Shown: positions 30,401 to 33,541 of the stretch, piece after piece
How the letters are laid out: every line of letters starts with the position of its first letter
Position numbering within the stretch: the stretch's first letter is position 1
Assembly (NCBI RefSeq): GCF_045037415.1
Contig: NZ_CP173438.1
Length of the DNA: 64,000 bases
Source of the DNA: Escherichia coli
GTDB taxonomy: Bacteria > Pseudomonadota > Gammaproteobacteria > Enterobacterales > Enterobacteriaceae
Direction: 5' to 3' (one strand)
Program-made: the position numbers

Positions 30401-33400
30401 CGGGACATCGAGCAGGTTGATGACGGGCGAGAGTCCCGTAAAGTTGTTAGAGCCAGACATCTCCATATCAATAGTGCCGCCACGCACGCCGCTGATCATC
30501 GCCTGCGCATTACCAAGGGTGCTATCCGGGAACAGTTTTAATTTCAGTTCGCCTTTGGTTTTTTCCTGCAGTAATTCATTAAATTTTTTCGCCGCAATAT
30601 GTTGTGAATCGGTTTGTGAGGTTTCATAACCGAAACGTAATGATTGTGCCGCCAGAGAAGATGTGCTGAACGTCGCCACTCCGGCAATTAATAAAGCGTA
30701 GGTTACAGAACGTAATTTCATTATGATTTCCTTTTAACTCATCCATTTAAGAGGAGCGGTAATGAGCTCCGGTATAAAAATAAATAATGCTAACAACATG
30801 AATAAAACCATGACGTAAGGCGCAACGCCTTTTACCGCATCGTCAAATTTAAGTTTCGCCACGCCGCATACCACGTTAAGAACATTACCGACTGGAGGCG
30901 TAATCAGTGATATTGAACAGTTGATAATAAACATGATGCCGAAATAGACCGGATCTATTCCCGCTTCTTTCACTAATGGCATTAATACTGGTGTAAGAAT
31001 TAATACGGTAGGCGTTAAGTCCATGACCGTACTGATCACCATAATAGCGAGCATAATGACGATGAATAATAAGCGAGGCGAATCAACCAACGGTTGTAAT
31101 AGCTCCGATACCATCATGGGTAATTCGGCGATCGTAATAAGCCATGCAGATACCGCAGCAGAGGCCACCAGGAACATCACCACGGATGTGGTTTTTGCCG
31201 CGTTAATCAGCACATGATAAAGCGTGGAGAAGGTCATCTCGCGATAGACCACCACCGAGACGAACAGAGCGTAGAAGGCGGCAACCGCGCCTGCTTCGGT
31301 CGGTGTAAATAACCCCGAACGGAAACCGCCAATAATAATTATCGGTAAAAAGAGCGCCCAAATACCGGAAACTAAGGATTGCCAGACTTCTCGCAGTGAG
31401 GCTTTCGGCTGACAAGGTAAATTCAGTCGTTTTGCCTGCCACCACCAGGTAACCATCAGCGTGACGCCCATCATGATGCCCGGTGCGATGCCCGCCATAA
31501 ACAGCTTACTGATGGAGAGTCCGCTGGAGACGCCGAAGATAATGAGTGGTATGGAAGGTGGGATAATGGCCGCAATAATCCCGCCGGAACCGATAAGCCC
31601 GGCGGCGCGGTTTACCGGATAGTTGGCCTGGCGCATCATCGGCACCAGCAGCGCCGCGACAGCTGCGGTATCAGCAACCGCAGAACCGGACAGGCTTGCC
31701 ATGATCATCGCTGCCAGCACGCCCACGTAACCCAGACCGCCTGGCCTGTGGCCTACCAGTTTCATTGGCAAGTCGACGATACGTTGCGACAGGCCGCCCG
31801 CGTTCATGATCTCACCCGCCAGTACAAAGAAGGGGATGGCTAACAGGGAGAAGCTGTCTGCGCCATTTACCAACGTTTGTGCCAGAATTTGCACATCAAA
31901 GATATCCATCCAGAACATCAATGAGATGCCGCACAACAATAATGCCCAGGCGATGGGAACACCAATTGCGATAGCCCCTAACAAACTGACAATAAATATA
32001 AGGATTGTCATCGTCAGGCTCCTTGTTGGTTTCGGCTGGGGGTATTTGTGAACTGCCGGTATAAGTGACGCAATTCCAGCAATGCGATAATCAGACTGGT
32101 GGGGATAGCGGCGGCGTACATTAAGCCAACGGGGACGCCAAGAATGGGCGATAAGTTGCTCCAGTCTTGCGCTGTTTTTTCTATAGCGCCCCAGGCCAGC
32201 CCCAGACACAGCAATAAAATGAGCGTATGGGTTAGCAGCGAAACACGTTGTTGATTAGCCGGTGAGAGTTTTTCGACTAAAAAAGTAACCTGCACATGGC
32301 TGTTGTCCATATAAGCAACGATTGCGCCAATAAAGGTTAACCAGACAAATAAAAGTCGGGATAATTCATCAATCGATAATATACTTGTGTGGAATCCATA
32401 TCGAAGAATGATATTAATAAAAATAATACAAGACAGTATTGCGATGATGATCGCAAGAATGCCTTCGAGTATCCGTTTCATAACGAGTCCTTCTGGTTAT
32501 GCAATATTTTTTATGCGCTAATGTTGTTAATATTCGTAATAATTATCAGAAAACGGCTAATTAGATATTCAAAGTGATATATAAGCGGATCTATTTAACG
32601 AGATTCATTCAGAGAGTGAATGCCGTTACGTAATATTTCGATGCGATGGTGCACATCAGCCGTCGCATTTATTTCCAGTAGCTTGATGCCAGCAAAATGC
32701 AATGTTGACGATTCTGCTACATTAAATAACTCGCGAACATGATCTGTGGTCATCAGGCTTTCTGCGCAGAATGGTGCAAACGGTGCGTGTAAATCCTGCC
32801 ATTCGCCGTATGCCCCGTTTAGCGTCGTACCAGAGAACATCAACGCGCCGAGTTTTCCGGCTTGTTTCGCCATTTGGGTGTGGGTCAGCGGCAGCGTTGT
32901 ATTGCGCCCTTCAATGGCAGAGCGCGCCCAGTTGATACAGATGCTGATGTCATAATCGGTAATAACTTCCAGCACATTTTCTAAAGGCAAAAAGCCTTTT
33001 CGGGGGGAAGAAGATGTCATGGCGTCGCAGTGTTCCAGCACCAGCTTGCACGGCCAGTCCCAACTGGCGATTTCTTTCAATGAGCGGGCAAAAGCGTCCG
33101 TCGCTTGCATAACATTAGGATTCGTTGCTAACGGTGCAGCCTGGAGCGCCAGTGCGAGCACTTTATTAGCCTGCAATGCGTTGATTTTATTGAACAGGTG
33201 GCGATAGTACGCCACGCAGGCCTGGCGCTGTTCTTCATCACTGGAGGCGAGAACCAAACCCGCTGTTTTCGCTGCGGCGACGCATGGTTTCCATCACTGC
33301 GGTGACGACAAATTTCCAGCTCTCTGGCGTATGACGGAGTAACCATTGATCGCCAAGAGGGTGAAAATTTTCCAGGCAAGGTTGTTCCAGACCCAAAATG

Positions 33401-33541
33401 TCTGGAGTCTCAGATAATTGTCGCCAGAAATCCTTCTCTTCCTCTTCACTTCTTTGGTGAAAAGAAGGTGCACAGGGATACGCGCCGATAATATAACCGG
33501 CATTATTCGTTTTCATTATGTGCTCCAGTAATCATTTTTTA

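Follow-up and report, generated by a model that had tools for sequence, protein, structure and literature searches.

The DUF4862 family gene between yiaL and yiaM is split into two open reading frames (ORFs) in the window, by which we mean the whole stretch of 64,000 nucleotides of Escherichia coli DNA analysed here. The frameshift is very probably not a mutation of the cell but a nanopore base-calling or consensus error, located in a methylated GGTCTC/GAGACC hexamer of an otherwise ordinary ST131 DUF4862 gene. The first-pass annotation had read the two ORFs as a single gene of some 300 aa, interrupted either by an indel or through a sequencing error. The gene turned out to be a 306-aa DUF4862 gene with a one-base insertion, and the evidence favours the sequencing error. 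This removes a false lead, since the gene is very probably intact, without polar consequences for the TRAP transporter and sgb genes; a cell whose DNA lacks the frameshift gives no reason to suspect altered downstream expression.

One extra base divides a single DUF4862 gene

The ORF listing showed two overlapping ORFs on the minus strand between yiaL and yiaM. The first-pass annotation had described them correctly as same-strand ORFs of 92 aa and 220 aa that lie in different frames, overlap by 20 bp (33238-33257), and of which the second begins with TTG. The features of the split gene are as follows.

32595-33516, minus strand: DUF4862 family gene, 922 nt here; the intact gene has 921 nt and encodes 306 aa (WP_000856275.1)
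33238-33516, minus strand: N-terminal fragment ORF of 92 aa with an ATG start; native residues 1-88, then out-of-frame SRLQ and a stop
32595-33257, minus strand: C-terminal fragment ORF of 220 aa with a fortuitous TTG start; the sequence is native again from A90
33249-33255, no strand assigned: GAGAACC on the plus strand, GGTTCTC on the gene strand; the Eco31I/RM.EcoMI hexamer GAGACC/GGTCTC plus one base, at the codons for G88-L89

We aligned the window copy with the intact gene of strain ZH063, in which 921 nt encode the 306-aa protein. The sole difference was an extra T after gene nucleotide 263. This T of the gene strand is an extra A of the plus strand at window position 33252/33253, and it changes GAGACC to GAGAACC. 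Intact homologues, from which the first-pass annotation had hoped to locate the frameshift, are thus available in ZH063 and also in the strains E1 and E2 (see below), and they place the extra base at this position. The insertion site is outside any homopolymer.

The repaired protein matched the Pfam family PF16154 (DUF4862) with E = 3.7e-94, residues 9-294 covering positions 1-291 of the 291-position model, and the 92-aa and 220-aa fragments each matched PF16154 on their own. Scans of both fragments and of the repaired protein against NCBIfam gave nothing useful. A DUF4862 gene is expected to be a single ORF of about 300-330 aa, whereas the window has two ORFs made by one extra base. The window copy resembles the gene for the E. 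coli 'DUF4862 family protein' WP_000856275.1 (PF16154) in its position between yiaL and yiaM and in every nucleotide but one, and differs from it in the additional base, which only the window copy has. An identical sequence in the genome Esc5 was flagged as a pseudogene by the NCBI annotation pipeline PGAP, with the label 'DUF4862 family protein, frameshifted'. These results demonstrate that the 92-aa and 220-aa ORFs are one DUF4862 gene and not a chance pair of ORFs, and that the DUF4862 gene at this locus is real, conserved, and annotated before.

We also asked whether the two ORFs could be a functional design, or whether a programmed frameshift could operate at their overlap. Such an arrangement is favoured only by the same-strand overlap of 20 bp, and no slippery sequence was found at the frame break, the second ORF has no ATG start, and the break falls in a conserved motif inside what is predicted to be a single TIM barrel. 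Moreover, when two separate genes were looked for among the homologues, all of those in E. coli, Escherichia marmotae, Citrobacter, Salmonella, and Klebsiella were single ORFs of 306-313 aa. On this homologue evidence we rejected both programmed frameshifting and a genuine two-gene arrangement, to which we give a negligible probability.

DUF4862 in the yiaK-sgbE operon

The genes around DUF4862 in the window are listed below.

35214-36062, plus strand: yiaJ, divergent IclR-type regulator
34015-35013, minus strand: yiaK, 3-dehydro-L-gulonate 2-dehydrogenase, first gene of the operon
33539-34003, minus strand: yiaL (DUF386), upstream neighbour of DUF4862
32014-32481, minus strand: yiaM, TRAP small permease, downstream neighbour of DUF4862
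30734-32011, minus strand: yiaN, TRAP large permease (coordinates obtained by mapping)
29735-30721, minus strand: yiaO, TRAP substrate-binding protein
28235-29731, minus strand: lyxK, L-xylulokinase

The cluster in the window thus runs from yiaJ into yiaK-yiaL-DUF4862-yiaM-yiaN-yiaO-lyxK-sgbH-sgbU-sgbE on the opposite strand. In Klebsiella and Salmonella the order is yiaJ followed by yiaK-yiaL-DUF4862-permease-lyxK-sgbH-sgbU-sgbE. The co-orientation of the gene within the yiaK-sgbE cluster and its place between yiaL and the transporter are therefore shared by E. coli and both of these genera. In both genera the yiaK-S operon has the same gene order as the window, with DUF4862 proteins 74-76% identical, but its transporter is an MFS permease, in contrast to the TRAP transporter YiaMNO of E. 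coli. The gene between yiaL and the permease is presumably the 'orf1' of the Klebsiella oxytoca yia operon.

A megablast search found the segment 32482-33538 in 1,055 of 5,426 complete E. coli genomes, in one copy each and always on the chromosome, and all 1,055 matches were annotated as 'DUF4862 family protein'. Comparison of the yiaL-yiaM interval, which the first-pass annotation had suggested for E. coli and Klebsiella, showed DUF4862 to be there in Klebsiella and in about 1,050 of the 5,426 complete E. coli genomes, and to be missing in K-12. As the first-pass annotation had stated, yiaL and yiaM are nearly adjacent in K-12: the spacer in MG1655 is 117 bp without DUF4862, and neither a MAFFT alignment with the window nor a short-word BLAST search detected a remnant of the gene in this spacer. 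The segment of about 1 kb is indeed extra relative to K-12, but the view that it was inserted into the operon did not hold: by gene order and distribution, DUF4862 is a regular part of the operon in E. coli B2, Klebsiella, and Salmonella and not an intruder.

Nucleotide identity between the window and K-12 was 95-100% over yiaJ-yiaK-yiaL, 67-82% over yiaM-yiaN, and about 93-95% from yiaO onward. The dip across yiaM-yiaN shows that two operon types of E. coli differ by a cassette, which consists of DUF4862 plus a divergent yiaMN in one type and of yiaMN alone in the K-12 type. A scan of 32300-33700 revealed no minus-strand terminator between DUF4862 and yiaM, and the promoter and terminator counts were about those expected from shuffled sequence.

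The +1 allele is private to one public genome

Among 1,053 complete genomes with the gene, an exact-match search with a 61-nt query centred on the insertion found the +1 allele in Esc5 (NZ_OZ369446.1) only; the extra base was absent from all the others. The exact 92-aa product was found in one contig among 153 billion gene positions, and this contig was again that of Esc5. Over 50,000 nt compared, the window and E1, the parent strain of Esc5, showed no mismatch and a single gap, which is the extra base. The comparison with ZH063 covered 62.5 kb and gave 3 SNPs, 1 indel, and one IS150 as the differences. This IS150 (55470-56908, beside hokA) is absent from E1, Esc4, Esc5, and ZH063, and it is present in E2, Esc20, and many other ST131 genomes. 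Because the element is missing from Esc5, the window cannot be Esc5 itself, and none of the records searched matched the window exactly.

The GH127 gene near the locus is also frameshifted. Its frameshift is common to all ST131 genomes examined, which makes it a lineage pseudogene.

A generally indel-rich assembly was considered as a source of the extra base and rejected, because there is a single indel against ZH063 over 62.5 kb and the second frameshifted gene is a pseudogene of the lineage.

Isogenic clones disagree at the hexamer

Esc1-Esc29 are single-colony 'escaper' clones of the clinical ST131 strain E1, obtained after one conjugation experiment (PMC12774652). The escaper clones were sequenced by nanopore and assembled by long-read consensus with Autocycler, and the assemblies of E1, E2, and E3 are hybrid (PMC12774652). 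That paper mentions neither 'polish' nor 'medaka' in its text. We assigned genomes to the E1 lineage when they had its ISEcp1-blaCTX-M-15 junction in the chromosome; these were 28 Esc genomes together with CNR20191027, which is labelled isolate E1. The parent E1 (NZ_OZ369157.1) reads GGTCTC and has the intact gene for WP_000856275.1, and the hybrid assemblies of E1 and E2 both read GGTCTC. The following clones of E1 read the hexamer otherwise.

GGTTCTC: Esc5
GGTTC: Esc4, Esc16, Esc27
GGTTCC: Esc1, Esc2, Esc6
GGTTTC: Esc3, Esc8, Esc9, Esc10, Esc14, Esc19, Esc22, Esc26

Esc4, which comes from the same project as Esc5, has a 1-base deletion within the hexamer in which Esc5 has its insertion, and apart from this hexamer the two assemblies are identical over 112.5 kb. 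The pair derived from E3 is discordant too, Esc30 reading GGTTTC and Esc31 reading GGTTCC. Three Taiwanese genomes (439, 446, and 447) are also discordant; they are of near-equal length, and their kinship is only presumed. Four mutually exclusive alleles in colonies that are each a single step away from an intact parent are the pattern of consensus noise and not of mutation. Confirmation of the frameshift by independent sequencing of the lineage failed for Esc5, the sole public carrier, since its parent E1 is intact and its sisters are discordant.

These data bear on the possibility that the window carries a real, private +1 loss-of-function mutation. Such a mutation would leave an N-terminal stub of 88 native residues, and it might lower the expression of yiaMNO-lyxK-sgbHUE through Rho-dependent polarity. 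The insertion is, after all, present in the sequence as given, the genome of the window is not among the assemblies shown to be wrong, a lineage pseudogene lies nearby (the GH127 frameshift), and strains of the K-12 type are viable without DUF4862. We nevertheless judge a real mutation unlikely, given that the identical allele of Esc5 is contradicted by its own parent, that isogenic assemblies show four alleles that exclude one another, and that the insertion lies not in a homopolymer but exactly within a doubly methylated motif. In addition, the 92-aa product occurred in no short-read assembly among the 153 billion gene positions, although ST131 is heavily sequenced and the reference protein is represented by 31,793 blocks. 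For the genome of the window, the verdict of a sequencing artefact is reached by analogy, because the window has the demonstrably wrong allele of Esc5 but belongs to another genome.

Missense variants at L89 gather in long-read-scale assemblies

We then looked up the exact proteins in the assembly collection. The reference protein was found in 31,793 blocks, 4.7% of them with a contig of >1 Mb. The L89F variant was found in 56 blocks (45% with a contig of >1 Mb) and the L89S variant in 28 blocks (50%). The two variants combined were about 10-fold enriched in contigs of >1 Mb over the reference protein (Fisher p = 5e-29), showing that the missense alleles gather in assemblies of long-read scale. 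In an alignment of 71 sequences, L89 has a conservation of at least 90%; it lies between the invariant residues G88 and A90 of a near-invariant FGLAS motif.

One methylated site would thus have put spurious entries into dozens of public 'complete' ST131 assemblies. They would include pseudogene calls in Esc4, Esc5, Esc16, and Esc27, and RefSeq protein variants at L89, with the accessions WP_410401339.1 for L89F and WP_338756758.1 and WP_286005127.1 for L89S. Where isogenic isolates are compared, errors in the hexamer can also falsify cgMLST or SNP distances.

A methylated restriction site as the probable source of the error

RM.EcoMI, the Eco31I system of ST131, recognises GGTCTC/GAGACC (PMC4659465). 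The product of its M1 methyltransferase is GAG-m6A-CC, with 100% of sites modified in ST131 strain EC958, and the predicted product of M2 is GGT-m5C-TC on the opposite strand (PMC4659465). We found this system in 634 of 5,426 complete genomes; ST131 clade B is without it. The window does not extend to GI-leuX, and the methyltransferase genes are known here from the E1 lineage, in which (Esc7) both are intact and have the same protein accessions as those of EC958. The endonuclease gene of this lineage is interrupted by ISEcp1-blaCTX-M-15.

Among the wrong alleles, GGTTTC occurs most often; it has T for C at the m5C position, and the extra T of the window comes immediately before this position. 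Six other GGTCTC/GAGACC sites within 112 kb are read alike in Esc4 and Esc5; therefore, the motif alone is insufficient and the local context probably matters. Methylation-induced nanopore errors have been documented in the tracing of bacterial outbreaks (10.1101/2023.09.15.556300; PMC11610573). Our case is like the documented one in that the errors lie within a methyltransferase motif, assemblies of the same strain are discordant, and those supported by short reads are clean. It is unlike it in that 1 of 7 instances of the motif in 112 kb is hit and that indels occur besides substitutions.

We propose that methylation is the cause of the miscalls. Eco31I-type methyltransferases would modify the hexamer on both strands (GGT-m5C-TC and GAG-m6A-CC), and the modified bases may distort the nanopore signal in the particular context GGGTTTGGTCTCGCC. 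A consensus built from long reads only would then land on a different wrong sequence in each run, be it +1, -1, C>T, or CT>TC, and the +1 outcome would cut the 306-aa ORF into the pieces of 92 aa and 220 aa. The genome of the window was presumably subject to the same error as Esc5.

The same methylation could, in principle, make the hexamer hypermutable, either by m5C deamination or by nicking and repair, so that the alleles would be real and each assembly would sample one of them. Recurrent variation is restricted to the hexamer, the C>T change is at the m5C and hence at a known kind of hotspot, GAGACC is depleted in the window (3 sites vs 17.3 expected), and all four hexamer variants abolish the recognition site, as would be expected on this account. 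However, the escapers come from single colonies and are one step from an E1 that reads GGTCTC, and the six other sites with the motif are invariant in the very same assemblies. The variant alleles are enriched in contigs of megabase size over short-read assemblies, and there is no cleavage pressure in the E1 lineage because its endonuclease gene is disrupted. We therefore hold real hypermutability to be very improbable. Equally improbable is a hotspot driven by the restriction-modification system that flips DUF4862 among intact, missense, and frameshifted states in clonal ST131; if true, a gene of a sugar-acid operon would be under a contingency switch of a sort not yet recognised. Deamination of m5C is a genuine hotspot for C>T mutation, and part of the GGTTTC alleles seen in public genomes may be genuine and have arisen in this way. 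For the +1 allele itself, a nanopore error in the methylated hexamer remains the reading we prefer.

DUF4862 is predicted to be a TIM-barrel enzyme

With the frameshift set aside, the locus presents a conserved protein of the 2,3-diketo-L-gulonate/L-xylulose operon that is uncharacterised and predicted to be a TIM-barrel enzyme. A full-text search of a literature library for 'DUF4862', or for yiaL and yiaK together with Klebsiella, returned no papers. The DUF4862 family comprises 555 clusters at 50% identity. No relative in the PDB was found by sequence, either with the protein as query or with a profile of 71 sequences, and the match of the repaired protein to Pfam AP_endonuc_2 (PF01261) was not significant (E = 0.18).

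The AlphaFold2 model of DUF4862 is a (beta/alpha)8 barrel with a pLDDT of 96.2 and a pTM of 0.93. Its best Foldseek matches were the L-rhamnose isomerase of P. stutzeri, a xylose isomerase of Streptomyces, and UlaE (L-xylulose-5-phosphate 3-epimerase), with E = 5e-9, a probability of 1.0, a TM score of about 0.65-0.69, and 12-14% identity. As far as this prediction goes, DUF4862 would have the fold of a xylose-isomerase-like TIM barrel. It resembles these enzymes in that the predicted barrel superposes on theirs and that its gene is in an operon for keto-sugar acids, and departs from them in the low sequence identity and the insignificant AP_endonuc_2 match.

In the alignment of 71 sequences the residues Y13, E44, G88, A90, P128, E161, H162, D164, K173, N195, W196, R198, S228, D241, H243, and K278 are invariant. 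The Glu, Asp, and His residues among them (E44, E161, H162, D164, D241, and H243) are candidate metal ligands. DUF4862 is likely to be a metal-dependent, isomerase- or epimerase-like enzyme with a keto-sugar acid from the 2,3-diketo-L-gulonate/L-xylulose route as its substrate. Since the pathway was studied in K-12, which is without DUF4862, its description may not be complete for B2 E. coli, Klebsiella, and Salmonella. Distant homologues, too, have genes for sugars and sugar acids as neighbours, one lying in a NeuB/CMP-transferase cluster and another beside an HpcH aldolase, SDRs, an AP_endonuc_2 barrel, a DUF1537-type kinase, and PdxA.

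Variant DUF4862 proteins and probable assembly errors

Accessions for variant DUF4862 proteins were noted from strains Esc20, Esc10, 447 and C25. The L89F variant, WP_410401339.1, was found in 56 blocks of the assembly collection, and the L89S-type variants, WP_338756758.1 and WP_286005127.1, in 28 blocks. All three accessions appear to have arisen solely from miscalls at the GGTCTC hexamer of the DUF4862 gene. The C25 assembly (NZ_CP127314.1) carries the miscall GGTTCC in DUF4862, and the adjoining yiaL gene is annotated as frameshifted (1-344 of L018, the C25 record), suggesting that this assembly contains further uncorrected long-read errors.

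A glycoside hydrolase family 127 gene in the window is likewise annotated as broken:

21581-23550, minus strand, glycoside hydrolase family 127 gene, annotated "frameshifted"

The same annotation was found in all ST131 genomes examined (ZH063, which has an intact DUF4862 gene; the clinical parent strain E1; and its project's clones Esc4, Esc5 and Esc20). In contrast to the DUF4862 break, this frameshift looks like a genuine lineage pseudogene.

Eco31I sites and the Eco31I locus

GAGACC/GGTCTC occurs only 3 times in the whole 64-kb window, compared with 17.3 expected from shuffles. This scarcity may reflect either avoidance of Eco31I sites or a general E. coli bias. The Eco31I endonuclease gene itself is interrupted in the E1 lineage and in about ten other genomes, as seen in the Esc7 clone:

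L041 (Esc7, NZ_OZ369353.1) 3501-9000, region with the chromosomal ISEcp1-blaCTX-M-15 unit inside the Eco31I endonuclease gene

Because both methyltransferases are still intact in these genomes, the Eco31I restriction-modification system is now a pair of orphan methylases.

Other differences in the window

An insertion sequence lies between glyS and hokA:

55470-56908, IS150
55515-56036, IS150 orfA
56033-56884, IS150 orfB

Many ST131 genomes, among them the hybrid-assembled strain E2 and Esc20, carry IS150 at the identical site. E1, Esc4, Esc5 and ZH063 lack it but are otherwise identical to the window, and therefore no single record in the collection matches the window.

A second difference, from K-12, concerns the TRAP membrane subunits:

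about 30700-32500, yiaM-yiaN, TRAP membrane-subunit cassette

Identity to K-12 is only 67-82% across yiaM-yiaN, 95-100% across yiaJ-yiaL and about 93-95% across yiaO-sgbE. The swap of this divergent cassette goes together with whether DUF4862 is present or absent.

A short duplication was also observed:

3112-3413, a pair of adjacent copies, each about 155 bp long and sharing 90% identity, within the YadA-like adhesin gene

This duplication is an ordinary internal stalk repeat.
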